Notes under the pieces: generated by a model
Database searches by the model: none
The model's input: the letters and a program-made list of their open reading frames with translations, nothing else
What the model was told of the DNA's origin: nothing
Assembly: GCA_958009085.1 (NCBI GenBank)
Contig: OY253677.1
Span: 620,001-684,000 of the forward strand
Length of the DNA: 64,000 nucleotides
Reading direction: 5' to 3'
Origin: Protoeuglena noctilucae
Taxonomy: Eukaryota
In this document: piece after piece, positions 4,864 through 43,400 of the stretch
Numbering within the stretch: position 1 is the stretch's first letter
Layout of the letters: every line of letters starts with the position of its first letter
Program-made: the position numbers and the translations under genes

Positions 4864-7800
4864 TCACGCCTCTGCCCTGGACCCCACCCGGCTCCTCCCC
4901 GGCCCAGGCGTGTTGTGCCCCGACCCCCCTAAGGGCGCCAGCGACGCCCGCGACGCGCTTTGCGACATCCCCGCTGATGCCGTCCCCGACCGCACCTCCT
5001 CCGCCCGCTCCATATTCGTCCTCTTGAGCGCCTCTACGTTCGCGAATTCGAATCCCTCGAACGCCTTATCCAATGCCTCTTTTTCCTCCGAGTCCGTCGT
5101 GCTCTGGCTCTGGCACCCGCCGCTGTCAGAACCGCCGTCAGAATCGGAGTTTCGGCCGGACTGCGGGCTCCGCGGCTCCGGCGGGGAGCCGGCGGGTAAC
5201 GAGCATTGCGCATCGGCGTCCCGCGGGGCATCGTCCGCGGCAGCACCGGCGGCGGCAGTGGGGATGCGCACAGTGAGCGGCGGGCCGTGCGAGCTGCGGC
5301 GGCTGTGGGGCGGCGAGGGGCTGCGGCCGGAGCTGACGCTGCGGCCGCTCCTGCTCGTCCCGCCGCCCACGCTGCTGCCACCCGTGCCACCCATGCCACC
5401 GCCCACACCACCACCCATGCCACCCCCACCGCCCCCACTGCCACCCCCACTGCCACCCCCCAGGTAAAACCCCGCCGAGCTGCGCGGCGACGCCCCGGCC
5501 GCATTGGCATTGGCGTCCAGAACGTGCCGCAGCAGCGGGTTAGACGCCTCGCTGTTAGCACCAAACCCCGCGTGACCGGCATGCTGCGCGTGGCTTGCAT
5601 GGGGTGCGTAGACGCCACCACCCCCCACGCTCTGCGAATTCGCGGGGTGGATGCCGACCCCGTGCGCGCGCGGGTGCGCGTCCGGGGCAGAGGCGGCGGT
5701 GGCGAGCGTGGCGGGGATGTGGGCGGCAGCGGTGGCGTCATTGCCGAAGGACCCACGCCTGGGGTGGGGCGCGTGGCGATCTGCCGAGGAGCGGCGGGTG
5801 AGCGGTGGATCGATCGATGACCTCCCTGACGATTCGGTTTCCACGGAGTGACGGTTGGGATCGATGGGGATGCCCTGAGAGGAGCGGCGTGAGGTGGCGG
5901 TGGAGGGGACCGGGCGTCGTGGGTCGGTGGGGCTTCGCATGTCCGAGGGGAGGCGAGGGAGGGTCTGGGGGGGTGAGGGAGGAGGGGGAGGGGGTTGGGG
6001 GTGAGGGAGGGGTGGGGTGGGGGTGAGTGGGTGAGGGGGGGGTGAGGGGGGTGGGGGGGTGGGGAGGGGGTGGGGGAGGGAGGGCGAGGAGGAGTGAGGG
6101 GGGAAGGGTGGGGAGTGCTGTTGTAATCTGAGTGCTGCTGCTGACAAGAAGCAGCCGCCTGCACCCCCCCTTCCCTCACCTCAGCATCGCTGCTGTCTAA
6201 GCCAGTGCTATCATCAGTGCTACCATCAACCACTGCAACAACCACTCCCCTATGCACTCACCCTAGCACTCCCGCCCTCCGGCATAGACCACGCCGGCTC
6301 CTTCCCCCCCCCCGCAGCCGTAGCAGCCGACAGCGGAGATCTTGTGGTGGGCGCAAACAGCGACGATGCCGCCGCCATCCTCGCCCCGCCCGCCATCGCA
6401 GTTGCGTTGGCACCAGCGGGGGTGCTTTGGGGAGACGTGACGGATGTGGAGTGAGGCGGGAGGGTGGCGGAATGGACGGGGGATAGGTGGGATGGGCGGG
6501 GGGCGGAGGTGGGGGTGAGGGTGTGGGCGGAGTTGGTTTGGCTGAGGGGGCTGTGGATGGTGAGGGGCTCTCCGGTGAGCGAGCTGACGAAGGTGGTGGA
6601 CGCGAGGGGTGAGGGCGAGGTCTGGAGGGGTGACGGGGGGCTGCGGGGGGGGGGAAGGGGGGGGAGGGGGTGAGTGGATGAGGTGAGGTGAGAGATGGTA
6701 AGGGAAGGGGGGGTGGGGTGATGAGGTGAAAGCGACAACAACAATAATAAACAACGAACTCATCATCTCACATGCACTTTCAAAGAGCTCACATCCAGAT
6801 CCAAGCAACCCCCTTCCCCCCCCAACAGTCACGTCCCCGGCATCCCCCACCCTTTCCCACCACCACGCTTACCTCAACGCTAACAAGACTTGCTAAGAAC
6901 AACAACCCCACAATCAACAAACACCCCCCCCCCCCCCTCCTCCCTAATCACTCACGTCCCCGGCATGCCCCCCAATCCCCCCCCCTCCTCGCTTACCTCA
7001 ATGCTACCAACAAGTACCACTACAATTTCCACTACCAACGCATCACCCCACATCCAATCAACCCCCTTAACACCCACTCACGTCCCCGGCATCCCCAACC
7101 CTCCTCCCCCCTCCTCGCTGCTCTCCGGCCGCGAAGGCGCCGGCGACATGGGGTTGCTGGCCCCATCCATCGACGACCTCCTCACTCGATACCTCGTCAG
7201 TTGATCCACGCTCACGTCCGCCATATTACTCCGCCTTCTAGTCGACACCGATCCCGACCCGCCACCCCCCGCCCCACCCCCCGCCGCCGAGCTCCACCGG
7301 GATTGCGTGGACGCCCCCAGATCGCTGGCCATCTCCCGATCTGACACTGGTTTCTGGTAGAAGTAGCTGGTGTCGGTCGCGCTGTCGGTTTCTGGCACGA
7401 ACGCGGCCTTTTCCTTGGATAGGCTGCTCCAGTTGACGTGGGCGAACCAGGGGTGGGATTTGACCTCCTGGGCGCCGCGGTGGCCCAGGCGCTTGCTCGG
7501 GTCCATCTGTGAACGGGTGAGTGGGTACAAGTATAAACCATTGTAGCATAGACCAATATATCATCATTTCACAACCTCCCATCCACCAACTCACCGTGAG
7601 CAGCTTGTTGATCTGATCCAAGCACGGCTCCGACAGCAACTTACCATCTATCGATATTCTATATATATGCAAGTATAATCAGTATCACCCACCCCTCACC
7701 GTGAGCAGCTTGTTGATGAGGTCCACGCACGGCTCCGACAGCAGCGGCCTCCCGTCCTCCTCGGTCGGGAAACTTATTGCGCGCTCGAGAATATTGTCGA

Positions 7801-10800
7801 ATATTTCCTCGGGCGTGTCCGCGTGAAACGGGGGCAACCCCACGACTAATTCGTACACCACCACCCCCAGCGACCACCAATCCACCTCCGGCCCATGGGG
7901 CTGCCCCAGCAATATCTCGGGAGCGAGATAGTCCGGCGTACCCACTTTGCGCTTATCATCCACCCGCATTGCGCCGGGAGCGTGCGCGGACGGGTCACTG
8001 ACGGAGGCAGCGGAAAGAAACGACGGCACTTTGGCGGGTGCGTGGAGGGCGGGGGTGGCGGGGGTGGAGGCGATGGATGCGTGGGCGGTGAGGGAGGGGG
8101 CGTCGGGGAGCGACGGGGGTGGCAGCGAGGGTAGCGATGCGAGTGCGGGTGCGGTGGTGGTTGATGCCAGCACCGACGCAGTGGCGGGTGCAGTGGTTGA
8201 CACTGATAATGATCCCAATCCTGTCGCACCCCCCGCAGTGGCAGTAGATACCAACCCATGCCCCGTTGTAGGTGCGCTGGTTGACACCGATACCGACCCA
8301 TGCACCGCTGCCCCACCCCCCGCCGTTGCTGTCGACACCGACCGCGGTGTTTGGATGCCTGAGGAGGGCTCAGAGGGCGACCCCGATGAGCCGTCGCGGT
8401 GCGCGGGCGCTGCGTCCGGTGGCTGCGTGGAATAGACCACATCGGTGGCGCCGCGGGTGCTGAGGCCGAAGTCGGTGAGCTTGACGTGGCCGTCGGCGCC
8501 GATCAGGAGGTTGTCGGGCTTGATGTCCCTGAGATATGGGGAAGAGAGGGAATCAATAAATGGGATAAAGGAATTATTATCGATATAATGGTTAGTATAG
8601 GTGATGTCACAATAATTATAACTACTGTCATATATCACAGGAAACCATCTTACATCTCTATTATTACACAGTTATCGTCATAATAATCACCATATTCACT
8701 ACTTCGTCGCTACAACTGACAAATCCTCGCCTGTGTATGACCCCGTTGGCGTGGCAGTACTCGAGCGCCAGCACGGCTTCGGCCACGTACGTCCTCGCCA
8801 CGTCCTCATCCAAGCTCTCCAGGTTGCGCAGAAGCGAGAACAGGTCACCACCGGGCGAAAACTCCATCACCAGATAAACGTTCTCCTTTGACTGAAAGGA
8901 ATAGAAGAACCGGACCACAAAGGGGTTGTCGGTGGTCGCCAATATGTTGCGCTCGTTCTGGACGTTCTCCACCAGGTTCTTGCGCAGTAGGTCCTTCTTG
9001 CGCATCGCCTTGATGGCGAAGAGGTCGCCGGTGGCGCGCTTCTGGGGGGAAGGGGGGGAGGGGTGAGGGTGGGGTGGGTGGGGGTGGCAGTGGGGTTTGG
9101 GATGGGGGTGGCAGTGGGGGTGGGGTGAGGGGAGGGAGTGGGGGTGGCAGTGGGGGTGGGAGTGAGGGGGTGTGAGTGGTTGAGTGGTCGTCACATCCAC
9201 GCTTTTGATTCAGCATCGCCCTGTCAACCCACCCACCCTCACCTGCGCCAGGTACACCCTTTGTGCGCCCTTCTCACCACTACTACTCAACTTTACATTT
9301 AACAATCACCAATTCCCTTACAACCCACCCACTTTCTCACCTGCGCCAGGTACACCCTCCCGTGCGCCCCCCGGCTGATGGGCTTGAGGATGACAAAGTC
9401 GTCAATGCTCATGCTCGCCGCCACCTCCTCCCTCAAATCCCGCGCCGTGGGCCGCCGTTGCACCGACGCAATGAACTCCAGTTTCCGCTCCACCAGCCCC
9501 GCGAGCTTGAGCGCCCAGATTAGCGCGAGCGACTCCGCATTACGGTACTCCTTTTCCAGCGCCGTTTGGAATCCCCGTTGGTCCGAGCTGAGAGCGGAAA
9601 GCACGCGCTCCCTCCCCCGCACCGCCTTGCGCACTTGCTCCAGCAGATTGCTGCACCGGCGCTCGGGCAGAGCGGTCCCGTCCGGTTGCACGCTCGAGCA
9701 GACGCGGGCGAGGGACGCGAGCCGTCGCAGGAACGCGGCTTGTCGCGCGAGGACCTTGCCGGCGCTGGCCCCCGCGAACCCCTCGGCCCGGTCGCGCTCG
9801 CTGACTTTGGCAAAGGCTCGCTGCAGGCGGGCCAGCTCCTGGTCCTCAATGGCGTTGGCCAGGCGGGCGAGCAGGGGGTCCACGTCCCTGGAAATGGGAG
9901 AATGAAATGGGGATCATTACTTAACAGTGTACCAGGTACGCACACCTCGCCAAATCTGAGTGTCGACACCCCCACCGCTCCCCCCACTGCTACCCTCACA
10001 CCAACCTCCCTGCCACCCTCACTACCACTTACACCCTCACACCCATCCCCATCCTCACTGCCACCCCCACCACCATCCCCACAATCACCTACCCCAGCTG
10101 CTATCCCCTCACTACCGCACACTCACCCACACTCGCACTCACATTCCCACTCCCACTTTCAAATCCTCTCCATTCCCCTAACATTCCCACCCCCACCCCC
10201 ACCCCCCCTCACCTCCTCTCCGCCCCCGCCGCCTCCACCACCGCACACACACGCGAGTGGTCGGAGATCAGCGCCATGGGCACCATCGCCTCGCAGATGC
10301 GACAGATGACCTCCATCTTCGAAATGGGCTGCCGGTCAGCGTCAAGCGAGTAGCGCTGGGGGCGGCGGTGGGGGGTGTCGCCCCCGCTGTCTTGGGATGT
10401 GCGGTCGCGCGAGGGGAAGACGGGGCTCTGGGGGGGAGGGGGATAGGGGATTGATGTTAATTTGACATTATATATTGTACATTATGCTATATTTACCACG
10501 TTATGCTGTATGTATCCTTTAATTTCCTATAATACTCACCCTCACCATAGACAATAACAAGCGATCCCCGCCCAGTGATCAGCAATAAACACGTCATCCA
10601 TCCGAGCTTCATAACAACCACAACAACCATAGATCCACCCAAACCCACCTTGGGCTCCCCCCTCCCCTCCTCTGCAACACGCCCCCCTCACCACACAGCA
10701 AACGATAGCAGACGATAACCCAATAACAGATAACCATCCATCCATTTGGACATCGATAAACATCAACACTATCCATATTCCAACCCCACCCACACCCACC

Positions 10801-13794
10801 TTGGGCTCTCCCCTCCCCTCCTCCTCCCCCCCCTCCCCCCCCTCCCCCCCCTCGCCCCGACCCGCCCGTAACCCCTCCAAAAAGCTCGGCGGCACACCGT
10901 CCGCCGTCCTCCTCGCCATCGCCTGAACCAGCTCCTCCGAATGAGTCACTTGCAATCCCTCAATCGCCAAAGGCGCTGCGTTCATCGACCGCCGACCACG
11001 CACCGCCGCTGAGCGGGGCGGCCGACGCGACCCCTCACCCCCCACCCCCTCGCCCCTCGCCCCCGCCCCTTTCTTATTCCCCGATCCGCGGAACCAAGAC
11101 GTGATGCGCACCAGCCCAGCACGGAACAGGTTCGTTCTCCCACCCAAGTCGTCCACAGCACGTTCCCCCGCACCCCCGGTACCATAGCCCCCCTCCCCGT
11201 GCCCCCCCTCGCCCTCCTCCCCCTCCCCCCCCCACCTCGCCCGGCAGGTGGTGAAACTCGGATCTGGCGCGCTCCCTGTCAGTGGACTTGCCAGTTACCC
11301 TAATCACCTCGACGTCGGCGTCGCTGTCGCTCGGGGCCGTGTCGCGTAAGGATGTGTAGGATGATGACTCGCTGAGATAGGCTGGCTCGGGCTCGTCGCC
11401 GGAGAGGGCGTGCTTGGGGTCGCCGAAGCTGGGGGGGAGATGAGGGGGGTGGGGGTGTTAGTGGGGGGGTGAGGGGGGGGGGGGGGGGGGGTGTGAGTGG
11501 GGGGTTGGAATGCTTTGAAAGGATAGCTGAAGCTGTGAGAGTGGGGAGGGTGTGCAATGCTACCCCCTTCCAACACCCCCGCAACCCACCCCACCCACAC
11601 TCACAACGCAACACCCCTCAGTACTATCAACACCCAACCCCCCCATATAGTACTACTATACTGTCCAATCACGTCGCCTCGTAGCTCTTGGCCACCCCCC
11701 TCTACCAACAACACTCGCAACCATTACCAGTCACTCATAACCATCTACCCCACACATATATACATACGCACTCACGTGGCCTCGTAGCTCTTGGCCACCC
11801 CCCCCGGCCCGACCTCGCTGTAGTTCCCCAGCCGCTTGCGCATCGTCACTTTCCGCAGCCAATCACTGTCCCCCGCCCCCCTCTCAGGCGGCTTTCTCGC
11901 AGCTTCCCGGATCGCCCGCCGCTGCCGGCGCTTTTCGGCTAACAGCGCCTGGGCCAGCGCAGTGACGGTCACCAGCAGCTTGGTGACGAGCAAGCGTGTG
12001 CCACGGTGCAGCACAACTGCACGCATACCCTCCAATTCCGACCGCACGCTCGCGAGCCCTGACTCAAGCGCTGAATCAGTCATACCCAACACACGGTCGG
12101 CCGTCGCTTGCAATTGGTGCAATACGGCTTCGATTTCGTCAGTGGCGTCGGCGGAGAGGATGGGGGCGGTCAGGCGCACGCTCTGGCTGCGGGGCGGGCG
12201 GGGCGGGGAGGGGACCGCGAGGGTGGGCGGGGGTGGGAAGGTGTCGGCGGGGGCGTCGGTGGTGGTGTGGCGGGGCTGCGGGGAAGGTGGGAAGGGGGAG
12301 GGGTGAGGTGCGGAGTAGAGTGGGGTGGGGTGAGGTGTGGGTTAGGGAGTGGTGGGTGGGGGGGGAAGGGTGCGGTGCGGTGCGGGTGGGGAGCGGAGGG
12401 GCGAGGATTGAGGGGCGCCGCAACGCGGAGTGGCCCGCTGTCACCGTCAAGCGCATCGATACACCATCACCACCGCATCTAGCCCGTGACTCAGTAGTCG
12501 TCAGTCACCATCATGCACAGCGCTGGCGAATCGTGCGTTCATCCACACCTGCGCCAACACACCCCCCCACACACGCACCTGCCGCGCCCCCCCGGGGCTC
12601 TCCATCGCCTCCTCGTCATCCCGGCCCTCACTCCCCCCTCTCCCTCGTCCCCCTCATCCCCGAGCCCCTCCGCCTCCTCCTCGCTGTCGATCCCCAGCAG
12701 ACCCGTCGACGCGTACGCGGACTGCAACGCCAGCTTCTCCCGGATCCGCTCCGCGCGCTCCTTGTTGCCGACCAGCTGCGGAGGCGCCTCGCGGGTCCCT
12801 TCCCCGATATCCTGCCACCCCGCAACGGAAGCGCGGGCTCGCATCTGGCCCCGCCCCGCCCGGTCCGCCAGACGCTCCAAGCGCTGCAGCTCCATCTTGC
12901 GACGACGCTGCACATCGATCTCCTGCTCCACCTGGTGCTTGAAGAGCTCCAGCTCCAGGTGCATGCGCGTAATGAGCGAGTTCTTGTCCCTGCGAAGAGA
13001 TGCGGTCCCGGGGCGGCCCTCGGGCGATGCGGGGCGACCGGAGAGTGCTCAGGTGATATCTACAAGTAATATAAAGCTATCGCGCATGTCTGGCGATGCT
13101 CCCGCGCTGCGCAACGCTCACCCGGGGAGCAGGGTGGAGCTGCGCTTCTTGGCCAGCAGCGCGCGCGCGAGGTCCGTCGACTCGGGCTTCCGGCGCTGCT
13201 CCTTCCCCGGCTCGGTCTCCTCGGATCGACTCGTGCTCGCGCCTGCGGTCGCGGGGCGGGGGCAGGCGCGTCGGCGGGGCCGTGGACCGGCGACACGGGC
13301 GCGGCCGGGACGCCGCCCCCGAGGGTCTTGGCGGCACGACATACGACGGATGGACATACATCGACGCGAGGCCCGTCGCAGCGGCCGCGAAATCGCGCAA
13401 GCGCGTCCACGGGGCGCGCACCGTCCGAAACACGGGGCGTCGTGGGTCCCGACGTGGAGACGGACGCCCCCTCCAGTCCCGCGATGAGCTCGTCGATCCG
13501 GTGCGATCCAAGAATGCCACTGGCGACGGCCCGGCTCCCCGTGGGCGACGTGGAGCCCGAGGTCCGCGCGTCCTGGATGGAAAGTCGCTTCGACAGGCCG
13601 GGGACGGGGAGCTCGGGCACCCCGGCGCTCCCCGGGCTGCAGATAGGGATACGGGAATCGCATCCGTCGCTCCTGGCCCGGCGCAGGGGCACTTGAGATG
13701 GGCAAGCAACGCGCGAGGCCCTATGATGCAGGAGACGCTTTAAGACCCACCTGCCGCCCGCTCCCTTGGGCCCTTCATGCTCTTTACCCTTCAT
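4864..13794 (-). CDS. IRE/IREH1-MAST/Greatwall-type AGC Ser/Thr kinase, multi-exon
   Basis: Exons encode [64 protein letters not shown], a long activation-segment insert, [16 protein letters not shown] and an AGC tail with FEGFEFAN. The 5' exons and start codon are uncertain. Confidence 0.9.
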
Positions 13795-15172: not shown

Positions 15173-15208
<36 letters not shown>

Positions 15209-18200
15209 GCAACAGTGGCGGCGGCTATATCCACCCCTCTTCCTGCATCTACTTCCGCACCCCCGCTCGCCACACCTCCACTCGCCGCCACGCCCCCCCC
15301 GCTCCCCTCTCCCCTCACCCTCGCCGTGGCCCTCTCCCCCCGCTTCCTCGCCAAGCACCGCGCCTTGAGCCCAGAGGATTTGACCACCCACCCCGCCCAG
15401 TCGGCGTTTCTGGCACTGGCACGCGCCCTGTCCCCCGCCCTCGCAACCACCCTCCACGACAGCTCATCGACTGCCCTTGGTTCCGACGCGCGCCCCTTCG
15501 ACACCGCGGCGCTATTCGAGGCAATTAAGCCTGGTCCCAATTGGCCAGAATACCGGGGTAGCTTGCCGGCGCTCGTACCTGTGTTGCGGCCTTACCAACG
15601 GCGCGCGGTGGCGTGGATGCTGGGAAGGGAGCGAGCAAGCGAGGTGGGTGATGCTTTTGGAGGAAATGGTGGGCGTCGTGTGCGGTTGGTGCGTGGGGTG
15701 ATGATGCGTGGCTGGGGTGCTGGAGGGGTGGCGGTGGCATGGGTGTGGGGGTGGCGTGCTTGCGAGTGGCGACGAATCAACAACTAGCTGCGTCACGATG
15801 ACACAAACACTGACATTGCTTTTCCTTTTTGTCGATTGCAGGGTGGCAGCGGCAGTGGGGTGCGTGTGGCTGCGGCTGCGGGTGCGGGTGCGACGGATGC
15901 ACTGCACCCACTATGGGCGCGGCTTCGCTGTGACAATGGTCGCGAGGTGTTTGTGAACACATTCACGGGCCGTGTGTCGGAGCAGCGGTTTGCTGCGAAG
16001 GGGCCTGCGAGCGTCCGCGGTGGCATCCTGTGCGACGAGGTGAGGAGGGGTGGCGGTGGTGGTGGTGGTGGTGGTGGTGGTGTTGAGGGTGAGGGTGGCG
16101 TGTGTTGTGCGATGAAGTAAGGGGGTTGATCTTGGCAGGGCCACCTTGATTGCTTGTTACCGGAGCTTTCTATTGTTGCAATTGCTGCCACATCTAGTGC
16201 CACTATCTAGTGTCTACTATGCAATACCACCCAACTATCGACACCCTTACTGCCTCGCTTATGACTCGCAGATGGGCCTGGGGAAGACCGTGGAGTTGCT
16301 GGCATGCATTCTGGCACATCCACGGGGAGAGGGGGATGGGATGGGGGGCGATGCTGATGACAGCGACGGTGATAGCGATGGTGGGGAGAGTGATGGGGGG
16401 GAGGGCATGGATGGGGGCAGTGGTGGTGGTGGTGGGGGTATAGGGGGCAGGGGTGGGGGCAGTGGTAGGTATTTGAGGGGGGTTGGCATGAGGGGCAGAG
16501 GTGGGGGCAGCGGTGGTGGGGATGGCATGGGTGGGAAGGGCGGCGGTGGGGATGACAGCAATGCGGATAGCGATGTGGATGTGGATGTGGATGATCATTC
16601 CGACACAGCCACCCGCTGCGCTGCGTGCGGGAGCAGGGCGGAGGACCGGTGGTGGGTGCAGTGCGACGATTGCGGTGCGTGGCTGCATCTGCGGTGCACG
16701 GGGCTCAAGAGGGTGCCTGGGAGGGAGGAGGCGTTCGCGTGCAACGATTGCGTGGTGAAGAGGGTGCAGGTGAGTTGGGGAGATGCATGGGTGTGTTGTG
16801 ATATCACTGCCAGCGAGTGCGTGGTGAAGAGGGTGCAGGTGAGTGAGATGGGGTCGTGGTTGTGATGAGCGTGTGGGTGTGACGAGTGCGTGGTGGAGAG
16901 GGTGCAGGTGAGCTGCTCTGTCTGTCCCCATCTCATTTCTCTCTCTTTCACCTGGCTTCACTTGTCAACGCCCCATCCCTGTCATCCACCCCACTTTTTC
17001 ACCCACCCCTCCCGCCCCACCAACCCCCACCCCTCCCCCCCATCTCTCTCGATTACACATGGCTTCACTCTGATCACCCCACCCCAACCCCCTCTCCCCC
17101 ACCCCCCCCAGCGCCCCCGCCCCCTCCCCAGCCCAGCCACGCTCGTCGTCTGCCCCCAGCCCCTCCTTCGCCAATGGGCAGAGGAGATACACCGTCATAT
17201 ATTGCCAAATACACTGCGCGTGGTTATCTACAGAGGGCAAGGGGCTGCGACCAGCAATGCGGCATTGAGGGTGGTGACGCCGGAGGAGCTGGCGGGGGCG
17301 GATATCGTGCTGACGACCTACGACGTGCTCAGGTGCGAGGTTGTTTGTTATGATTGAGTTATTGCAAATTGCACCGTTATGATGTACATTTAGTAGGTGT
17401 TTATTTTGCTTGCCACCTACGACGTGCTCGGGCGAGGTCGTTGTGGTTGTGTAGATGGTAGTGTTATTTATAATATCGAGTCCTTTATATTCAAACACCT
17501 TCCCCCCTTATCGCCCCTCGCAGGCGTGAGGTTCACCTCCACCCCTCCTCCTCCCCCCCCCGCCCCCTCCGGCGCCCCAAGCGCTTTGCGGTCGTGCCCA
17601 CCCCCCTCACCCGCGTGCAATGGTGGCGCGTGTGTCTGGACGAAGCGCAAATGGTCGACAGCGGCGCGAGCAAGGCGGCCGAGATGGCGCTGCATCTGCA
17701 TGCTGTCAATCGGTGGTGCGTGACTGGCACGCCCGTCAATCGCGGGATTGAAGACCTGCAGGGGCTGCTCATGTTCCTCAGGCGAGGGATACTAGTGGTT
17801 GGTGTTTTAATAGTTATGATAATAGTTGTAGTTGCAGCTATTGTGATTTGCAGGGGCTCCTCATGTTCCTCAGGCGAGAGAGGGGGTGGTTGGTTTAGTG
17901 TTATAATAATTACAATTATTGTATATAATGATTCTAACGATAATGGGTAAGCTCCATATGTTCCTTTTTCTGAGAATGATAATAATAATCAAACACATCC
18001 CCTCCCCCCCACCCACCCAGGCTCCCCCCTTGGTCCCACCGGCCCTGGTTCCGCCGGGCCATCCAAGACCCCGTGCTGGCGAATTCGAATTTGAATCCCA
18101 ACCCCGGCGATTTCAAATTCGAATTCAAACCTTCCCAAAACACCGACACCGCCCCCTCTTCTGCCTGGGCCGCGCTGCTCTCCGCGCTTCGCCCCGCCCG

Positions 18201-24200: not shown

Positions 24201-24217
24201 TGAGGGAGAGGGGGTGA
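14768..24217 (+). CDS. SHPRH: SHPRH-like SNF2 helicase / PHD / RING E3 ubiquitin ligase, multi-exon
   Basis: [27 protein letters not shown], a PHD finger (CAAC..CDDC..HLRC..CNDC), [24 protein letters not shown], a RING finger (CPICH..CGHALC..C..CAMC) and [13 protein letters not shown]. Confidence 0.92.
15173..15213 (+). repeat. (ACA)n trinucleotide repeat encoding poly-Thr in SHPRH exon 1
   Basis: acaacaaca... run in the reading frame that gives TTTTTTTTTTTT. Confidence 0.9.
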
Positions 24218-25331: not shown

Positions 25332-25778
25332 TGGTGTGGTGTGGTGTGGTGTGGTGTGGTGTGGTGTGGTGTGGTGTGGTGTGGTGTGGTGTGGTGTGGT
25401 GTGGTGTGGTGTGGTGTGGTGTGGTGTGGTGTGGTGTGGTGTGGTGTGGTGTGGTGTGGTGTGGTGTGGTGTGGTGTGGTGTGGTGTGGTGTGGTGTGGT
25501 GTGGTGTGGTGTGGTGTGGTGTGGTGTGGTGTGGTGTGGTGTGGTGTGGTGTGGTGTGGTGTGGTGTGGTGTGGTGTGGTGTGGTGTGGTGTGGTGTGGT
25601 GTGGTGTGGTGTGGTGTGGTGTGGTGTGGTGTGGTGTGGTGTGGTGTGGTGTGGTGTGGTGTGGTGTGGTGTGGTGTGGTGTGGTGTGGTGTGGTGTGGT
25701 GTGGTGTGGTGTGGTGTGGTGTGGTGTGGTGTGGTGTGGTGTGGTGTGGTGTGGTGTGGTGTGGTGTGGTGTGGTGTG
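25332..25778. repeat. Perfect (TGGTG)n pentanucleotide microsatellite, ~445 bp (~89 units)
   Basis: Uninterrupted gtggt units between the SHPRH and VPS4 3' ends. Confidence 0.98.
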
Positions 25779-26178: not shown

Positions 26179-28453
<2,275 letters not shown>

Positions 28454-30512: not shown

Positions 30513-32186
30513 TCACGGCTTCGGGTCCTTCCCGCCGTCCTTGTCCTCCCCGTCCTTCTTCTTCGCCTCTTCCGCCGCGTCCATCATGCTCATCTGCATC
30601 GCCATCTGAAGCTCCGGGTCCGCGTCAAACATCCCCGCATCCGCCGACCCCCCCGCCGCCCCACCCCTGGCCTCCGCCTGCAAGCACACGAGCCCCGGGG
30701 CATTCGTAACATCCGCAGCGCATCCGCGAGACGCCGCTGCCGCAGCGTGGGCGGCCACGCACCGCAGAGCCCTGCTGTGCAGCAGGGGCAGACCCCGTGC
30801 CACCCTGCGCGCCACCCTGCGCCTGGTCCCCTCGAGACAGCTCGATCGCGCGCTGCAGCAGCGCGTCCTCGTCCAAATCCATCGCGTCCGGCGCGCCGGG
30901 CGCAGCCTCCCCGCTCGCTGCAGCCGCTGTTGCAGCTGCCTGCGCCTCCTGCGCCGACATCTGCAGCGCCATCGCCATCTCCGGGTCCAGGTTCGGGTCG
31001 ACTCCGAACTGCGAGAAGCGAAACGGAGCGCACGCCGTTCTCCTGTGTCATCGAATCGCAGCCTCGCAGCGAAGAGAGCGAACGCAAACATGACTCTACC
31101 AGCAAAAAGCGCGCCCGGGCCCCGGGGAACCTCGACGCAGCGCCGCGCACCTCGTTCAGACTGCCCCCGCCGTTCTCCTGAATGATTCGCGAGGAGATGA
31201 GGCAGTCGTCCAGGTGCTGCCCCGGGTGGACCTCGACCAGCGTCGCGTTCCCGTTCTCCGCGGCCTGGAAGAAGGCCCGCAGGTCCTCGTGCGATTCGGA
31301 CTCGGATCCGAAAAGCACCAGATCGAGCGAGATGTTGTTCTTCTTGAGCTTCTTGGCGATCTTGACCAGCGCGTCGCGCGACTCCGCGATGGGGCTCCCG
31401 ACGAACAGCACGATGCGCTGACGCTGGTTCTTGTTCTCCCTGCGAGCGAGCAAATCACCGCAGTCATCGCCACGGACGCCACACCGCAGCGAGCCGGGAA
31501 GAAAGGGCACGAATGCACGCAGCGACGAGGCGACGTCCTCACCGATGCTTGAGCGCTAGCTGCGCGATCTGGATGCCCGTCGCCAGGTTGATGCGCCCCC
31601 CGACCTTCATATCATGCATGCAGTTGAGGATTTTGCCTTGGTTCTGCGGAAGGGCGGGGGGGAGCAGTTGGCGACGCGTTTCGCTCACGCACACGCCGCC
31701 CGCGCGACTATCGCGCCGTCTAGATGCACAAGGTGCAAAGACCATTAGTAAGAGTCCACTTGACACTGTCAAGGCGCGCATTTGAGCATGGGATCTTGCA
31801 CGAGGACCTTTCCATGCCCACACCGACGCCACCCAGCTCCACCTGGCCGGAGAAACCAGGCGCGGCATTGTCTACAAAGCATACATGCACACGCGGAGGG
31901 TGCCACGTCACCAGTGCTCCTGTGCTGCTGGCACAGGCTGCCTCTCCCTTTGATGGCCAAAACAGCGGGCCCCGGCCCCGAACATCACCTGCGTCGGCGT
32001 CACGACGATCGTGGGTGCCTTCCCCGCCAGCGAGAGGATACCGACGGTCGTCTCGGGGTTCCCGTCCGTCTTGGCGCTCGCGAGCACCGTGACAACATCA
32101 TGCTGCGCCTGCCACCGGCTCGGTAAGTAGTCCTCATTGAGGGCGTACTCCGAGTTGTCCACGGCAATGATGATGCATTCGCTCAT
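30513..32186 (-). CDS. RPN10: 26S proteasome ubiquitin receptor Rpn10/PSMD4
   Basis: vWA domain (IIAVDNSEY..PSRWQAQ, GIQIAQLALKHR|ENKNQRQRIVLFVGSP) followed by UIMs (DPEMAMALQMS, EDALLQRAIELS, DPELQMAMQMS). Confidence 0.95.
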
Positions 32187-32831: not shown

Positions 32832-35800
32832 ATGTCTTGTGCGCGCAGTCTACCGCGGCGGGCGCCCGCCCGGCCGCGCCGGGTCCGCACGCGCAACATG
32901 GAGGGCGCGGACCTGCAAGTCGACGCCCCCGTCGCGGCTGCGGTCGATATAAGCGGCGTCTCCGATCGCGAGACGGAGCGTCTATCTCGTTCGGACAATG
33001 CCGCGGGCCCGCACGACGCAGCCGCGGCGTCCCCGTCGCGCCACGGGGCGCCCTCAAAGCATCACGATCCCCGCCCGTCCCTGGCCCGCCGCATGCTGAG
33101 CCAAGATGGCCTGGAGGGCAACCCCCTGGAGCTATTGGAAGTCACGGAGCGTTTCTGGTCTGCGCTCAGGCACCAGAAGAGGCCTGCCAAGGGGCCGACG
33201 GTGGTGAAAGAGGATTCAGGCCCGATGCCCCCCCGGCCGGGTGTGGGTGTGGGTGTGGATGGTACGGGGCAAGGTGCGGGTGGCGGTGGAGGTTCAAAGC
33301 ACGATTACGACGCCGTGGTGTGCGGGGGTACGCTCGGGGTGGTGCTGGGGCTGGCGCTGCAGCTGCGGGGGCTGTCAGTGTGCATTGTGGAGAAGCGGCT
33401 TCTGAGGGGGCGCACGCAGGTGAGATGGGAGATGAATGGGGTGGTGTTGGTGGTGGTGTGAGATGAGGCTGTCGGTGTGCATTGTGGAGAAGCGGTTGCT
33501 GCGAGGGGGCGGCCAGAGGTGGGTCGAGGTAGCCAAGGGGAAGTGTGGGTGGGTGAGGAGTAGAGTGGCTGTGCCAATCTGTGCCTCATTGCACCCACCC
33601 ATGAGCCACTTATAATGACCATCTCACCACCACCCCCCATTCACACCCCATCACGTCACCCACCCATCCCCGCAGGAGTGGAATGCGTCATGGGACGAGC
33701 TCATGGCCCTGGTACACGAGGGCCTCATCAGCGAGTCCGAACTGCGCGACTGCGTCAAGTCCGAGTTCAATCCTATCCGAGTGGGCTTCAAGGGCATGAG
33801 GGAAGACCTCTACACTACCGACGTACTCAACATCGGGTTGGCGCCCGATGCGCTCATCTCGCGCCTGCGGGCACGATACCTGGCGGCGGGCGGGGCGTTG
33901 CACGAGCGCACTGCCTTTCGCAATGCGACGGTGTATGCGGACGGGGTGGTGGTGAGGGTGGCGCCGGAGCCAGTGGGGGCGGGGGCGGTGCTGGACGCGG
34001 GGGACGTGACACGGCCCACTCTGGCACAGGGGGACGGGTGCCAGAATCGCCAGAATGGGGAACGGGGTGGGGTGGCGGGGGGAGAGGGGGAGCGGGGTGG
34101 GGTGGCGGGTGGGGGCGAGCGTGGGGAGAGTGCGAGTGCCAGTGCGAGTGGCAGGCATGGACACAGTTACGAGGTTCAAAAGACGGGGCCTTTCGAAATC
34201 CGATCTCGTCTGGTGATCGACTGCATGGGTCATTACAGCAACATCGTGAAGCAGGCGCGTGGGGGGGGCAAACCCCCAGCGATGGTGGTGGTGGTCGGGG
34301 GGTGTCATCCGGGGGTGGCTGAGGGTGGCAACACGCATGCGGATCTGCTGTATACGTTTCAGGATGCGGAGGACGATCTGCAGATGGTGAGGGGCTTATT
34401 GGGTACCAGTGAGGTAGTGAGGGAGATAGTGGCGTGTGTGAGAGGAGCGGAGGGGCGAAGGGCGTTGTGCGTAAGTGAGAGTGACACCCGGTGTCCGGTG
34501 TGTCTCCTCATCGCAGTACTGGGAGGCGTTCCCTGCCGAGGGTGGTGCACTGAGGACCACGTACATGTTTACCTACTGCGACGCCAACGGTGAGGGACTG
34601 GTGAAGAGTGGATGGGTGTATTACTTGCATGTTCACCTGTCCTGTTACCTCCTCACTGCCACCCCTTCCCCCCCCCCCCCCCCCCCCCTCACCCCACCCA
34701 TCACCCTCATCCTCTTCCCTCCCCCCCAGCGTCGCGTCCCCCCATCGAATCCTTCCTCGACACCTATTTCCAATCCCTCCCCGACTACCAAGGAACACCC
34801 CTCGACGACCTCCGTTTCAAGCGGATCCTGTTCGGGGCATTCCCCGCCTACCCGGACGGCCCCCTGCGCCCCGCCTTCGATCGCGTGGTGCAGGCGGGGG
34901 ATGCCGCGGCCATGCAGTCGCCGCTGGTGAGGGGATATGTATTAGATGCATCATGATTAGTATCATGTGTGTACTATAATGCCACTGTACTATAATAATG
35001 ACTGCTGTACTGCTGTTTTACAATAGTACCACTGTAGTAATGCAGTAACAATAACTTACATGACATAATCAATGCCCCTTCCTCTCCCCAGTCCTTCGGC
35101 GGCTTCGGCTCCATGCTCCGCCACCTCCCCCGCCTGTCCCGGGGCCTCCACCGCGCCCTCATCCACGACCGCCTCAGCAAACGAGACCTGGCGTGGCTGC
35201 ACCCGTACCAGCCCGCCCTCTCCCTCGCCTGGCTGTACCAGCGATCCATGGCCATGCCGATTGGGGCGCTCAAGAGCACAGGCGAGACGTGATGTGCTGT
35301 GCATGTGTGGGGAAACGATCGTGCTGGGGTTGTGTGGGATGACGGTGTGAATGGGACAGTCAGTGTTGATTTGGGACATTAATGAAGCAGTACCAGTAAA
35401 TTGCTCTGTAGAACAACAATAGTAAATTTAACAGCTTCTAGAAAGCCTTGCAGCTATGCATACCAAAGCCTCACCCCCCTTTACCCTAATCACAGAGGGC
35501 GGCGGTGGCTTCGTGACCCCCTCCCACATCAACCGCCTGCTGCGGTGCAGCTTCACCGTCATGGCGTCGCTGGGGGAGTGGGTGCTCAGGCCATTCCTGC
35601 AGGTGCGTTGGCAGGGTATTGTCTCTTTGTTTGTATGGCGTAGACTGGGGACTGGGTGCCCAGGCCAATCCTGCAGGTGCATTGTGCTGGGCAATCACGA
35701 AAGTTGACCTGGGCTCACTTGCACCCGCGTTGACATATCACACGATGAAACTTAACATGACTAAAGCCCATCACTCTCACACTCATATTCTCTCCCCACT

Positions 35801-36171: not shown

Positions 36172-36630
36172 AGCAGTGCTATGGTCGATTGTCATGTTCA
36201 GCGTCATGTTTAGTACTACGGACCCTCGTTGTGGTCATGGACCGTTGTCATGGTCACGAACCATGGTGGTGGGCTGTCTGACTACTCGGTTTTCGTGCTG
36301 TGCTTTTTGTGCCGCGCACGGCCCCTGCTCGGCAAGGCAGTCTCTACAAACCCGTGGCGTGCGGCTGTTGGCTACTCACGATGAGCCAATGTGCGCATAG
36401 GTGCAGTTCAAGCGGACAATAACGTACAGCATTGAACAACAAACCCTCTCAGAATGGGCGAGTGACTGAATGAGACTCGGTCATTCTAGCCGCCGTAGCA
36501 TCTCACACCCCAGTGCCATCCGCGCCACCCTCACTGCGCCATGATGGGGTAGTAGACTGTGACTGACGCTATCATCTCAGCCCCAGCATCTCTCTCTCAG
36601 CCCCTGCCATCCAGCCCCTGCCATCCGCCC

Positions 36631-37898
36631 TCACTGCACCATGATGGGCGCGACGGCCTGGGCGCCCCACCCGCCCACCGCCCGCCCCTCCCCCACGACC
36701 CCCATCGACACGCTGCCCTCGCTGCCAGAAGCAGAGTCGGACTCTGACGAAGAGCTGGACTCATCACTCGATGAAGACTCATCATCAGATGACTCGCTCG
36801 ACGATGACTCTGATGAAGACGACTCTGACTCACTGGACGATTCAGTCGATGACGACTCGCTTGACGACGACGACTCCCCCGATGCCTCCATCAACGCAGC
36901 TGCATCTCCATAAGACGACCCCAGTCCCCCACCGTCGCTGTCACCGTCGCTGCCGCGGATGTCGACCTTGGCCCTCGTCAGCGCCACCAGGGGCACCGCG
37001 CCCTCCTCCACGTTGGCGATGGCGAAGGCGTAGCGGACCTGGCCGAGGGACAGCTTCTGCGGGGCAGGAAAGCAGTCACAGGGTATGGGGGGTGTGGGGC
37101 GGGGCGAGAAGAGAGGTGTTGTGGCAAGGAGTGCGACACGCAGCGATGGGTGCTGCATGTGCTCTTATCGCTCATAAGCAGCAACAGTTGGCATTGCAAC
37201 GCCATGCTCGGTCTCTCAGGAACAGCGCAGCGCACCTTGGCGTTCAGCGGCCCCGGTCCCTCGGCGTGGGGCGCGGGCGTGATGCTGAAGCTGACGTCCA
37301 CGCACGTGAGCTGGTTGGAGTCGTCGTCGACCGCCACCAAATGCACCGAGTAGTTGCCCGCGGGAACGACGGGCGGGAGCTTCTCCTGCGCGTATTAAAA
37401 CATCGCAAAAGAGTCGCCTCGGGAACGGCGCGCTCGCTGCGGCGCGCGCGGCCCGCGGCGACGACGCGGACGCACCGTGGCGTGAATGACGATCTGCCCG
37501 GGCTGCACGGGGCAGTCAGTCCGCGAGCAGAGGTCGTCGAGCTCGTGCCAGATGGGGATGCCTTGGACCTTCACGTCGATGGTCACCTTGCCGCTCTCGA
37601 CCGTCACTGAGGGGCGCGACCGATAGTATGGGTGTCATTCTGCGCGACAGTCGGGCCCTCGGGCCCGTCGAGCGCTGCCACGCGCGCGGGGCGCACCTGA
37701 CGAGTCGCAGATGACCTGGATGTTCAGCAGGTCGCCCGGGTGGGGCTCCGGCGGGTCGAGCACGACGTCCGTGACCACGATGGGGGAATCATCGGCACCG
37801 CAGGTCCGGAACGAGGGCTCGTTCGCCCCAGCCGCGAGGGCAGCGGGGGCGAGCCACAGGCCCAGGAGGGGCGCGAGGAGGGCCAGGCGCCGCGCCAT
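36631..37898 (-). CDS. Secreted ML (MD-2/NPC2-like lipid-recognition) domain protein with Ser/Glu-rich C-tail
   Basis: Signal peptide MARRLALLAPLLGLWLAPAALA, then FRTCG..VVLDPPEPHPGD, DLCSRTDCPVQPG, PAGNYSV and LTCVDV, with the ML-domain cysteine pattern. Confidence 0.85.
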
Positions 37899-38168
37899 CG
37901 AGGCGGGCCCGCGAACAATCGAAGGACACAGGCTCGAACGCGCGGGCGCACGGGCTCAAGGGCGCGCGAGGAAGGCGGAGTCGACCGAGCGTGATGCACG
38001 AGACTTTGCGAAGTGTTTATGCAGAATAGCGGGGATCTTCAAGCAGCAACCGAGGCAGAAGAGGCTGCAGAATGGCACGGAAGTAGCGCGGAGCTACAGC
38101 GACGAGCGGCGAGACAGCAAACGAAGGACTGACGCAATTCCAGCGAGCCGTGCAGTTAATCGGGCGCT

Positions 38169-40092: not shown

Positions 40093-40451
40093 CGCGGCCG
40101 TCCTCTGACTCGCGGCCCGGCCCCGGGATCGCAGAGACCACTTGACAGCGTCTGCAAGGGCGTCTAGAAACACAGTATTGCAATTTTGGGCTGATTTTCT
40201 CGTCCATTATGTCAAACGGAGCTCGTGTCGGTAGGGTTCGCCGGGGGGTGTGACCCAAAACAGGTCCGGCGAGCAAAAGAGCGCCTTCAGTGTGCAGCCG
40301 ACCAACACATCTGTCATCGCTGCGCGTGCATCGCATCCCGCTCGTCCGTCAGCGTTGGCGGCGAGAGGCTTGTCGAGCGTGACCGCGATTGGCGGCTGAC
40401 TTTGGCTCGTGCGGCGTCATCGAAGTTATCTAGACATTCCTGTTACATCGG

Positions 40452-43400
40452 ATGGCGCTGTCCGCCTCGGCAGCGGCGAGGGCCGGCCCTCCCGGCGTCT
40501 CCGGGAGGTGTCGCCCCGATGGCCCTGATGCCGGCGCGATGAGCTGTCGTGTGGGCACATCACGGGCAGCGGCGGGGGACGCGCACGCCAGGTGGGTCGG
40601 CTCTGCTCCCGACAGCCCCATCCGAAGGCGAGGAACGGGCGAGGCCGCTCTGCCCTCTTGCCCATGCGTGACTGAAGCATAAGTTCACTAGGTCGTTGCT
40701 GCCGCGCGGAAAGGCCGGTCGGCACCGGAGGGGCGCGGCACTCGCACCTTCTCGCCGTCCCATTGATTGCGCCCGCCTGCCGCCCTGTGAGTCAAGCAAC
40801 GTTGGGTAACCTGCCCCTCCCGCGCCTTCTCGCAGCCATCCTTTGCTGCAGCGGCGGGGACCGCGTCAGGGACCGGTGTTGTCCGCCGGGAGGGGCGAGG
40901 ACGTGGCGGCTGGGCCTCGGCCGGACTTGGAAGGCCTGCTCGAGCGTGATGGCGAGTCCCCTGCGCGCGAGATGATTAGATCAATCTTCCCGCTCGCGTC
41001 TCGCGTTCCACCGCCCGCGGAAAGGTCGTGCCGGGACGCTTCAACACGCTCCTGTGTGCAAACTCGCAGGCCCGGAGCCGTCGGCGGCGCGGCGGGCGTG
41101 GCCGACTCGTCTGGCGAAGACTGCGCTTTACGCCACGGCAACTGTCGCGGCGGGCTTGGCCACTTCGCTCCTCAGGCCGGGGCACGCCTTTGCAGCCCCT
41201 GCTTCGTCGACCAAGACGACCAAGACGACCGCCCCGGCGACCAAGGCGCGTTCGATTTCTCTTATTTATATCCCTGACCATAACATGCATCTGTAGAAAG
41301 GGCCCCGGGGCGGCCAGGCTCGCCCAGCGCTGCAGGCTTGGAAGGCATAGGGTGCATGTGTGTGGCCTATCGCATGACCTCGTTCCGTGCTCTGTCGCAG
41401 GAAACGGAGGAGAAGAAGTTCGTATCGACGACGGAGATCGTGCAGGCGGGCGAGAGGATGATCAAGAAGGACCCACGCAAGGCAGAGGTGCGTGGCGGTG
41501 GGGCATGGGCGGGGTGCGGATATGGTGTGGGGTGTTGAGTGGCATGGATTGGGTGGAGTGTGTACTCGCATCTGATCATCTCGCTCGCGCCCGCAGCTTG
41601 CATCTTATCTGCCTGCCCTTGCCCCCACTCGCACCTCACCTCCCCACCCCCACCCCCGCCCGCAGCGCTACCGCCCCTTCAAGGGCAACAAGGTCGACGT
41701 GACCAAGCCCGCCCAGCAGGGCATCCCCGACCCGACGGACGTGCCCCAAACGGAGGAAGAATTCAAAAAGCGCATCGCGGACATGCGCATGCAGGAGCCC
41801 CTCACGGTCTGGCGCGTCGACCGACTCCGCCAGATGACCTACACGCAGCTGTGGAAGCTCGTGGGGGCGGGGCACGTGGACTGGGTGCAGCCGACCATGG
41901 ACCAGCGGAGCTTGGTCGTGCGCACGCGGGACAGGTGAGGGTTGGGGTATGGGGGTGGGTGTGGGGGACAGGTGGGGGGTAACACAGAGTAGTGCACACG
42001 CGGGACAAGTGAGTGGGGTTTGGGGTGGGAGTAGCGCCCGCTGGCTGACTACCCGCACCCACATGCCTCACCCTCACCCACACCCCCACCAACACCCTCA
42101 ACCTCACCCACCCACCCCCGCAGCGCCCCCGGCGGCGCCCGCACCGAGCGCGTGGGCATGCCCTACGACGAGGAGCTCTTCGACCACTTGCTGTCCAATG
42201 GAGTCGAAGTGCGGTCTCCCTACAACAACCCCTGGCTCCCCGTGATGAATGCCCTCGCCCGTCTCCTGCTGCCCTTCCTCTTCTCGGTGTGGCTCGTGCA
42301 GATCGCGTTCCGGCTGGGGCGAAAGAAGAAGAGGGACAAGGCGAGGGGGGTGGGGGTGGGGTGGTGGTAGTGGTGGTGTGCATGATTGAGAGGTGGAGGA
42401 GAGGGACAAGGCGAGGGGGGTTAAGTGGGTGGGGTGTTGGAGGTGGTGGTGGTAGTGCATGATTGAGAGGAGAAGCAGAGGGACAAGGCGAGTGGGGGGT
42501 GCAGAAGGGGTAGTGGAGTAGAATGAGCGAGAGATGGGGGACGAGGCGGCATGGGGTGCAGTCCTGCTCTCTCCTTTCAACCCTCGAGCTTCCCAACACC
42601 CACTCCTCTCCCCTCACTCCCCCTCCCCCGCAGCTCTTTGGCGGTGCGCGCATGGAGATGGTCAAGGGGCTGGGCGTGTCGTTCGACGACGTGGCCGGCA
42701 TCGACGAGGTCAAGGCCGAGGTGAGGAAGGGGTTCGACCGCAGTTACGACATTCTCAGCTAGGCTATTGGATGTTCAGGCCTTGATTTCGCCCGCTCTCC
42801 CCTCCCCACGCCTCGCATAACGATTATCGCCTTCCCCTCACCCCCACGCCTCGCCCGTGCCCCCAGATTATGGAGGTGGTGCAGTTCCTCCGCGACCCCG
42901 AGCGATTCCTGTCGCTCGGCGCCCGCTCCCCCGCCGGCGTCCTCCTGGTCGGGCCCCCCGGCACCGGTAAAACCCTGCTCGCGAAGGCGATCGCGGGCGA
43001 GGCCGGCGTGCCGTTCTTCTCCGTCGCCGGCACGGAATTTATGGAAATGTTCGTCGGCGTCGGCGCGTCGCGCGTCCGCGACATGTTCGAGAAGGCCCGG
43101 AAGAACGCCCCGTGCATCCTCTTTATCGACGAGTTCGACGGCATCGGGAAGGCGCGCGACGACTCGGGCTTCGGGAACGACGAGGGCGTCACGACGGTCA
43201 ACCAGCTGCTGACGGAGATGGACGGCTTCGACGACAACACGGGCGTGGTGGTCATGGCGGCGACCAACCGCCCCGCGGCTTTGGACAAGGCCCTGACGCG
43301 CCCGGGACGCTTCGATCGCGTCATTCACCTCCCGCTCCCGAACGTGGAGGGCCGCGAGGCGATCCTGCAGGTCCACGCGCGCGGCAAGACCGTCGACCCG

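Follow-up and report, generated by a model that had tools for sequence, protein, structure and literature searches.

The analysis concerns a 64,000-nucleotide (nt) stretch of the Protoeuglena noctilucae genome (GenBank assembly GCA_958009085.1, contig OY253677.1, positions 620,001 to 684,000 of the forward strand; hereafter the window, numbered from its first letter), in which introns of four genes carry one or two downstream copies of the end of the preceding exon together with its 5′ splice site. We call these copies echoes, and the 5′ splice site the donor. The window has a G+C content of 62-68% and is densely packed with intron-rich genes, for which a purpose-written gene finder returned 16 gene models with 119 introns. 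All intron counts rest on this finder, which is imperfect outside the FtsHi gene and which made some echoes into micro-exons; the FtsHi model itself was 99.7% identical, with no gaps, to the transcript-derived protein P0002.

The first of the four genes, on the minus strand, encodes a protein kinase, the domain of which was located at ∼7.7-8.7 kb by a Pfam scan. The other three had been named SHPRH, CruP, and FtsHi in a preliminary description of the window. On the plus strand, the gene at 14.3-24.2 kb is homologous to SHPRH, as a protein search with one exon revealed ∼60-74% identity to named SHPRH proteins of Chlorella, a pedinophyte, Chloropicon, and animals. Same-species SHPRH transcript proteins were not found, the protein searches giving relatives only (37% identity; best match ∼70-74%). 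The label FtsHi is reasonable since P0002 reads YEASK at the place where an active FtsH carries its zinc motif; the best named relatives of this protein, from a pedinophyte and trebouxiophytes, are 59-61% identical. We take the organism to be a marine core chlorophyte, one without annotated proteins in the collection that was searched. The name CruP found no support in NCBIfam or Pfam, and the protein atlas gave sub-threshold FAD-oxidoreductase leads only, hence our use of quotation marks for this gene.

Anatomy, polarity and distribution of the echoes

Each echo repeats an exon end plus a G[TC] donor downstream within the same intron, as seen in the sequence itself, in two repeat scans that use no gene model, and in alignments. 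While the preliminary description had counted at least 16 such introns, local alignments upheld 15, with 18 echo copies (Table 1). The one that we did not count, described as 21320->21388 (21319->21387 in the convention of Table 1; 21305-21392, plus strand), is an ambiguous 19/20 match inside a G-run. The period of the echoes is 69-151 nt with a median of 98 nt. The exon-derived part measures 14-50 nt in the local alignments, and a placement test put it at no more than 56 nt in all 15 introns; the 5-12 intron nt that follow also belong to the high-identity core. Over this core, exon ends and echoes agree in 653 of 740 columns summed over the local alignments (88%), individual copies being 3-20% different, and G[TC] is kept in all 18 echo donors. 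Three introns (donors 16769, 7082, and 42340) hold two echoes each, consistent with the earlier observation that some introns are echoed twice.

Table 1. Exon ends, their echoes, and related repeats in the window. The fourth column gives the last exon base or, for echoes, the last exon-like base.
Feature	Positions	Strand	Last exon or exon-like base	Basis or match
SHPRH exon end, used donor GTGAGT, first copy	16742-16775	+	16769	alignment; exon end backed by homologues
SHPRH echo 1 of 16769	16811-16844	+	16838	period 69; 32/34 identical
SHPRH echo 2 of 16769	16869-16915	+	16907	offset 138; 39/47 identical
SHPRH exon end, donor GTGCGA	17308-17344	+	17332	alignment; Chlorella SHPRH collinear across 17342|17522
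SHPRH echo of 17332	17406-17440	+	17430	period 98; 31/37; two 1-nt deletions at junction
SHPRH exon end, GC donor GCGAGG	17757-17789	+	17781	alignment; homologues collinear
SHPRH echo of 17781, GC donor kept	17849-17881	+	17873	period 92; 31/33; spanning ORF on public contigs
SHPRH exon end and donor	19399-19447	+	19440	alignment
SHPRH echo of 19440	19528-19576	+	19569	period 129; 46/49
SHPRH exon end and donor	20135-20175	+	20170	alignment
SHPRH echo of 20170	20238-20278	+	20273	period 103; 38/41
SHPRH exon end and GC donor	23627-23677	+	23669	alignment; homologues collinear
SHPRH echo of 23669	23760-23810	+	23802	period 133; 41/51; GT in echo vs GC in used donor
"CruP" exon end and donor	33370-33425	+	33419	alignment
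"CruP" echo of 33419	33467-33522	+	33516	period 97; 40/45 over core
"CruP" exon end, donor GTGCGT	35561-35610	+	35602	alignment
"CruP" echo of 35602	35635-35684	+	35676	period 74; 44/51; spanning ORF on public contigs
FtsHi exon end and used donor	41915-41939	+	41934	transcript-derived P0002, P0246, P0247
FtsHi echo of 41934, in spliced-out intron	41989-42013	+	42008	period 74; 22/25
FtsHi exon end and used GC donor	42327-42351	+	42340	transcript-derived proteins
FtsHi echo 1 of 42340, whole unit alignable	42397-42421	+	42410	period 70; 24/25; TRF period 77 x 2.4
FtsHi echo 2 of 42340	42471-42501	+	42487	offset 147; 28/31
Kinase exon end and donor	11769-11803	-	11776	alignment
Kinase echo of 11776, one strain-polymorphic site	11666-11700	-	11673	period 103; 33/35; spanning ORF on public contigs
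Kinase exon end, donor GTGGGT	10788-10838	-	10800	alignment
Kinase echo of 10800, rare GTGGGT in common	10637-10692	-	10649	period 151; 46/56
Kinase exon end and donor	9336-9369	-	9341	alignment
Kinase echo of 9341	9238-9270	-	9243	period 98; 31/34
Kinase exon end and donor	7689-7743	-	7700	alignment
Kinase echo of 7700	7583-7638	-	7595	period 105; 50/56
Kinase putative exon end and donor	7075-7119	-	7082	open frame; outside gene model
Kinase echo 1 of 7082	6949-6993	-	6956	period 126; 39/45
Kinase echo 2 of 7082, donor weakened (GTGACT)	6826-6869	-	6833	offset 249; 38/45
Decayed echo, further gene: perfect 13-nt copy of exon 31168-31180, donor stretch missing	31033-31045	-		
Decayed echo, PRORP-type gene: 21/23 copy of exon 57073-57095, donor part lost	56962-56984	-		
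Ambiguous pair: 36625-36649 copied at 36525-36549	36525-36649	-		period 100

The first repeat scan (offset 30-300, at least 18/20 identical, low-complexity filter) gave 31 rows, 25 of which fell at 14 of the introns first described; the remaining six came from an array at 4372-4570 and from the pairs 36525/36625 and 56962/57073. The second compared the window with itself, allowing gaps, at offsets of 40-400 and with a minimum of 22 nt under a complexity filter. Its 14 matches comprised 11 echoes of an exon end plus donor, two coding repeats, and one exon piece in its own intron. Matches dropped by the complexity filter either added to these echo families or were G-rich, C-rich, or microsatellite arrays.

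The preliminary description had reported a polar pattern, with no mirror cases at acceptors. To the interior of the same intron we aligned queries of 40 exon nt and the adjoining 8 intron nt, taken at the exon end for the donor side and at the start of the next exon for the acceptor side; an alignment score of at least 16 counted as a match. Two finder-made echo micro-exons were merged beforehand, bringing the 119 introns to 117. Matches were found in 14/117 introns on the donor side and 1/117 on the acceptor side (Fisher p = 7e-4), the latter being a dubious, GGGGCAG-type low-complexity match; before merging, the counts were 12/119 and 1/119. When run against other introns, the same queries matched in 3/4680 (donor) and 5/4680 (acceptor) comparisons. 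Donor echoes in the window thus lie far above chance, the polarity holds, and ∼1 intron in 8, or about 12-15% of those modeled, carries an echo. Duplications that span an acceptor or lie within an exon would alter the mRNA, so the polarity probably comes mainly from selection. With the observed unit lengths placed at random in gene spans, units across acceptors would outnumber those across donors by a factor of 1.16, and the acceptor deficit is what selection alone would give.

Echoes were present in 14/57 introns of the four genes and 0/60 introns of the other twelve (p = 1.7e-5). Three of the four have the lowest G+C content at third codon positions (GC3) in the window (0.82-0.83), which suggests that echoes persist where slightly harmful insertions would be expected to, under weak selection. 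Introns with echoes have a median length of 286 nt vs 172 nt for other introns (p = 0.001) and a lower G+C content (0.53 vs 0.63), and by our own subtraction they return to ordinary intron length once the echo offsets are removed. As a control, the repeat scan was run on 957 kb of metagenome sequence, made up of 80 loci that are unrelated to the window or only distantly so, and yielded 6 matches/100 kb vs 22/100 kb in the window. A few arrays and some transposon-like introns account for the control-locus matches, none of which lies in L001, the closest relative.

Echoes are also present in several public assemblies. Open reading frames (ORFs) that run through donor, spacer, and echo were found letter-for-letter on 19 ENA contigs (ORF 17651-17947), 35 Logan/ENA contigs (ORF 35456-35704), and 4 contigs (ORF 11557-11784). 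For the last of these, three more contigs bear a 1-residue variant in which one base of the echo of 11776 (within 11674-11676) has the state of the exon copy; this echo is therefore present in at least two strain variants and is polymorphic. Seventeen of 20 guessed echo-spanning ORFs had no exact match, a count that has little meaning since it probably reflects wrongly guessed start codons or strain differences. As weak hints from shares of sampled words, marine metagenome and metatranscriptome runs contain much of the window, and the share for 16000-25000 was 0.68-0.89 in metagenome runs of another study.

Donor use and the origin of the echoes

The 665 residues of P0002 lie on a public contig of 2483 nt, whereas the same residues cover 2929 nt in the window; the contig is thus a spliced transcript. 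Proteins P0246 and P0247 (825 residues each, on contigs of 2.9-3.0 kb) have the same junctions as P0002, all three joining 41934 to 42124 and 42340 to 42634. This places all three FtsHi echoes within spliced-out introns and demonstrates use of the upstream donor. In the FtsHi protein cluster, which has 10 members, we found neither an echo insertion nor an echo-spliced form. SHPRH homologues run collinearly through 17332|17524, 17781|about 18021-18031, and 23669|24008. The first copy is thus the spliced copy in five introns, two in FtsHi by transcript-derived proteins and three in SHPRH by homologue collinearity. In the kinase gene, the junction at 7700 joins ...INKLLT to MDPSKRLG, a sequence that we take to match a conserved kinase motif. 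The exon ends in the remaining echo introns were assigned by open frame and gene model only. With two or three near-identical 5′ splice sites per intron in ∼15 natural cases, a rule for donor choice becomes directly testable. The gene finder gave in-frame duplicated peptide segments at several echoes, and automatic gene models of this genome likely carry false small exons at such sites. Micro-exons flanked by AG/GT were predicted on echoes at 7595-7627, 17838-17873, 33490-33552, 42393-42410, and 42470-42487.

To compare the spacers, we set the sequence after each real donor against that after its echo donor. Homology was detected overall (combined p = 1.8e-6), with 8/18 pairs at p<0.05, and in about half of the pairs the spacers are collinear over nearly their whole length at 64-70% identity (kinase donors 11776, 10800, and both pairs of 7082; SHPRH donors 17781, 20170, and 23669; both pairs of FtsHi donor 42340). 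The earlier statement that flanking intron sequence is poorly similar was therefore right and yet incomplete, as the spacers keep a weak collinear homology. The youngest echo family, at 42324-42498, is a plain tandem repeat (TRF period 77). Rare donor types are common to donor and echo (GTGGGT once, GCGAGG twice, and GTGCGT once), which implies that the copied unit includes intron bases. Taken together, the spacer homology, the tandem repeat, and the rare donor types point to head-to-tail duplication of a whole unit and not of the exon end alone.

On balance, we favor the reading that echoes are head-to-tail duplications across the exon-intron 5′ junction that are silent and then decay. Of the process at donors proposed in the preliminary description, this keeps a duplication that leaves an exon end and a 5′ splice site in the intron. 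A tandem duplication of 69-151 nt would comprise the donor with 14-50 exon nt before it and 32-112 intron nt after it, and unequal exchange or slippage would sometimes produce a third copy. The spliceosome would keep the upstream, original donor, such that the new copy leaves with the intron and the mRNA is unchanged. Such an event would be neutral or slightly harmful, would lengthen the intron by one unit, and would leave a copy free to decay; its polarity would arise mainly through selection against duplications that alter the mRNA. The mechanism is most likely ordinary in kind, i.e., tandem duplication plus selection, and unusual in its frequency and clean polarity. For intron growth, echoes would then show young introns lengthening by ∼100 nt per step.

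The divergence between copies bears on what happens after duplication. Across 16 echoes in 14 introns, exon/echo mismatches fell at 11, 11, and 26 of 165, 174, and 169 sites in codon positions 1, 2, and 3, respectively (p = 0.009), and 26 of the 48 echo states would change a residue. Differences at positions 1 and 2 (6.5%) mostly reflect change in the echo, while the excess at position 3 reflects synonymous exon change that the echo did not follow. This pattern indicates that the copies diverge independently, the echo being neither strongly homogenized nor under coding constraint. Among the 18 echo donors, five have dropped to 7.1 bits or below, and two further echoes (31033-31045 and 56962-56984) have lost the donor by internal deletion. 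We take the echoes to be duplications with a neutral or slightly harmful effect, which persist under weak selection and are eroded thereafter.

Several observations weigh against tandem duplication followed by decay. The exon-derived part is 88% identical, whereas spacers are 64-70% identical with many indels, and neutral drift predicts a difference of at most ∼2-fold. In the youngest pair the ratio of spacer to exon-part differences is ∼2, plus indels in G-runs, and slippage in G/T- and A/T-rich spacers is a plausible cause of faster spacer decay. In addition, the exon-derived part never exceeds 56 nt despite units of up to 151 nt (P about 1e-4 by random placement; Kolmogorov-Smirnov p = 9e-5). 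This bound may reflect selection against long exon copies, which gene finders and perhaps also spliceosomes take for exons, or a donor-anchored mechanism. The clustering of echoes, 14/57 introns in four genes vs 0/60, could reflect a local mutational cause. The evidence on donor use covers 5/15 echo introns. Lastly, the echo donors, which the spliceosome would have to ignore, are still good: all 18 are G[TC], their mean strength is 8.9 bits vs 10.25 bits for the used donors, and 7/18 equal or exceed the used donor.

Other explanations for the repeats

The alternative that survives best, although we regard it as unlikely, is a mutation anchored at the donor. Breaks or template switches would occur preferentially just downstream of 5′ splice sites, for instance at a G-rich intron start prone to R-loops or G-quadruplexes (G4), and repair would copy a bounded stretch that extends back across the donor to take in a few tens of bases of the exon end. 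The bounded exon-derived length of 14-56 nt agrees with this, as does the location of the donor within the unit (at 0.20-0.57, mean 0.33); both depart from random placement. So do the 44% G in the first fifth of introns (with 44% C in the last fifth) and the clustering of echoes in four genes. Every duplication at offset 40-400 that is neither low-complexity nor a coding repeat touches an exon end. That no purely intronic duplications were seen does not count in favor of donor targeting, however, since the screen detects 0/18 of the known spacer pairs on their own and 1/18 without the complexity filter. The junctions that we inspected by eye showed no G-runs at unit ends, and selection against long exon copies readable as pseudo-exons could equally bound the length. 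If the bound does come from mechanism and not from selection, a mutational process is tied to the 5′ splice site. More specifically, splicing- or transcription-linked break-repair at 5′ splice sites might copy the last 14-56 exon bases, the donor, and the intron start into the intron, a proposal that we hold to be doubtful. Were it true, donor-anchored copying would be a new source of intron DNA and a main way in which recently gained introns grow. Introns with several equally good donors, the first always used, would then offer a natural test bed for 5′ site choice.

An insertion with a long target duplication, in which a mobile element or filler enters at the donor, a staggered break of 25-60 nt is filled, and the spacer is foreign, appears improbable. 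It would explain the 10/18 pairs in which the spacer has no significant similarity to post-echo sequence and the fall in similarity a few bases past the donor, and introners with target duplications are known (described in part of PMC9860276). However, the spacers are overall homologous and collinear, neither spacers nor introns form a sequence family, and the target-duplication signal is absent at intron ends. The near-equal periods of the three-copy arrays (69/69, 126/123, and 70/77) fit tandem amplification better.

Little probability attaches to a maintained function, in which echo donors would serve as decoys, backups, intronic U1 sites, or AG|GT recursive splice sites; the preliminary description had offered such a system as one of its two explanations. 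G[TC] is kept in 18/18 echoes, most with a good consensus, the exon-derived part is kept better than the spacer, and 10/18 echoes end in AG before G[TC] and could serve as a 3′ site that regenerates a 5′ site. Yet this AG frequency is that of the donor consensus itself (A at -2, 58%; G at -1, 95%), 8/18 echoes lack AG, and 103/117 introns have no echo. Changes at all codon positions, donors at or below 7.1 bits in 5/18 echoes, the two further echoes without donors, and the strain polymorphism inside one echo all argue against maintenance, as do the location of echoes in the lowest-GC3 genes and the absence of an echo-spliced FtsHi form.

A coding role, with echoes as small duplicated exons or as alternative 5′ sites through which the protein gains segments, is highly improbable. 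AG...GT micro-exons can be placed in frame on several echoes by gene finding, and the frame is open through the first 69-nt unit (16770-16838). Periods divisible by three, though, are at chance level (6/18), the transcript-derived FtsHi proteins contain no echo segments, and SHPRH homologues have no insertion at three echo introns. Lastly, an assembly or haplotype-merging artefact can be dismissed, as artefactual duplicates would be identical whereas donor and echo copies differ, and three ORFs across donor, spacer, and echo recur exactly on public contigs.

Known systems and other features of the window

The lineage of the window seems to have gained many introns (119 modeled in 64 kb, with 6/6 tested absent from the closest relative), and it lacks the repeated introner families that account for such bursts in other organisms. 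All five FtsHi introns (window 41374-44765) are absent from L001, where the gene (L001:1242-3452) aligns as one uninterrupted 741-residue match with 75% protein identity and DNA identity of ∼72-82% in aligned exon stretches. Six metagenome relatives at a greater distance lack these five introns as well, and L001 is also without the intron at 45468-45647 in the gene next to FtsHi. Because L001 bears two convergent genes, it is genomic DNA. This suggests recent intron gain in the lineage of the window as the simpler reading, with loss in the relatives as the alternative.

In the 64-kb window, an all-vs-all blastn search of the 119 introns revealed no intron families, with 9 plus-strand and 15 minus-strand high-scoring segment pairs that were all short and G- or C-rich. 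Target-site duplications at intron ends were not seen either, as in-register matches were at the level of shuffled pairs; the four matches with a score of at least 12 between 5′ and 3′ junctions were three echoes split into micro-exons and one decayed echo. An introner origin of the Micromonas kind was dropped on these grounds and because the best named FtsH relatives are Pedinophyceae and trebouxiophytes. Own-pair complementarity of intron halves (inverted ends) was slightly above that of cross-pairs, with a mean z of 0.52 and z>3 in 3/69. The 69 modeled introns of at least 160 nt pass from 44% G/16% C in the first fifth to 20% G/44% C in the last, such that the halves are complementary in composition. 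A sense-strand excess of donor-like motifs in introns was not found (76 sense, 149 antisense, ∼40 shuffled, and 101 in exons).

Among known systems, a tandem-duplication model of intron gain is reportedly owed to Rogers in 1989 and to Gao and Lynch in 2009. Parts of PMC2891723 describe the Rogers model as duplication of an exonic AG|GT, and a passage of PMC4974935 describes a potato RdRp case of internal tandem duplication that includes a splice site. As with echoes, a short head-to-tail intragenic duplication carries a splice signal, the mRNA can stay the same, and the duplicate becomes intron. In the Rogers model, the first GT and the second AG bound the new intron, the end of which therefore copies the upstream exon end and the start of which copies the downstream exon start. 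In the window, by contrast, the duplication affects an exon-intron junction that already exists and creates no new intron position, and in-register similarity is absent. Rogers-type creation of introns from exonic AG|GT was rejected because intron ends match upstream exon ends at the null level (own means of 5.82 vs 5.82 and 6.68 vs 6.39 matches of 20).

Introners are reportedly also the subject of work by Huff et al. in 2016. Published accounts present them as introns that derive from transposons and bear target-site duplications (Gozashti et al. 2022, PMC9860276) and as introner elements in Micromonas (PMC3879977); direct repeats at intron borders are described separately (PMC11782384). The introner cases and the window have in common a marine alga with many apparently young introns and a copy of gene sequence that lies in the intron beside a splice signal. 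Introner duplications measure 3-9 bp and lie at the opposite intron end, and introners form sequence families, often with inverted ends. Echoes, in contrast, comprise 14-50 nt plus a donor in mid-intron, with no intron family and no end duplication. An unrelated metagenome FtsH gene (L077:1141-2234, and L078) has introns with inverted ends of ∼30 nt and 8-nt target direct repeats, for instance GGCGCAAG; these are classical transposon-type introners and contrast with the window.

Recursive splice sites, or ratchet points, occur in long introns of Drosophila and vertebrates. An internal AG|GT, present in 10/18 echoes, could likewise act as acceptor and then donor. Recursive sites, however, contain no exon copy, come with a pyrimidine tract of their own, and belong to very long introns, whereas the echo introns measure 190-370 nt. 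Duplications of an exon-intron junction in humans, namely FGG exon 8-intron 8 (part of PMC9052919) and an 8-bp duplication in OCT1 (part of PMC8137991), are the same kind of event in that junction and donor are duplicated. They are isolated and harmful, whereas the echoes are tolerated and common. Tandem 5′ splice sites of the GYNGYN type and similar (passages of PMC1779574 and PMC2423196) also place two competing donors in one intron; they are 3-12 nt apart and cause subtle protein variants, while echo donors are 69-151 nt away and come with a copied exon end. None of these systems, to the extent that the sources cover them, has a frequent mid-intron copy of an exon end plus donor. The preliminary description knew of no account of echoes as a pervasive intron feature, and our literature searches of open-access papers and preprints found none.

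Other Pfam matches in the window were to Vps4, ribosomal protein S17, an FtsH-type AAA protease, a fatty-acid hydroxylase, a NatA auxiliary subunit, a PRORP-type protein, and an adenylate-kinase-like protein. The ambiguous repeat at 36525-36649 can be read as the end of a coding frame with TGA or as an ATG|GTGCAG donor, and the duplicated unit may span a stop codon rather than a donor. The interval in which two convergent genes end facing each other holds, at 4372-4570, ∼8 donor-like CAGGTA/CAGGTG motifs with a period of 30-35 nt. At the start of the SHPRH gene region, an (ACA)14 run (15173-15214) forms a threonine tract in the open frame, and the gap 3′ of that gene contains a perfect pentanucleotide microsatellite of ∼450 nt (GGTGT-type unit, 25332-25778). 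A G-rich minisatellite with a unit of ∼23 nt lies within a Vps4 intron (26544-26960) and also gives self-matches at offsets of 70-244.

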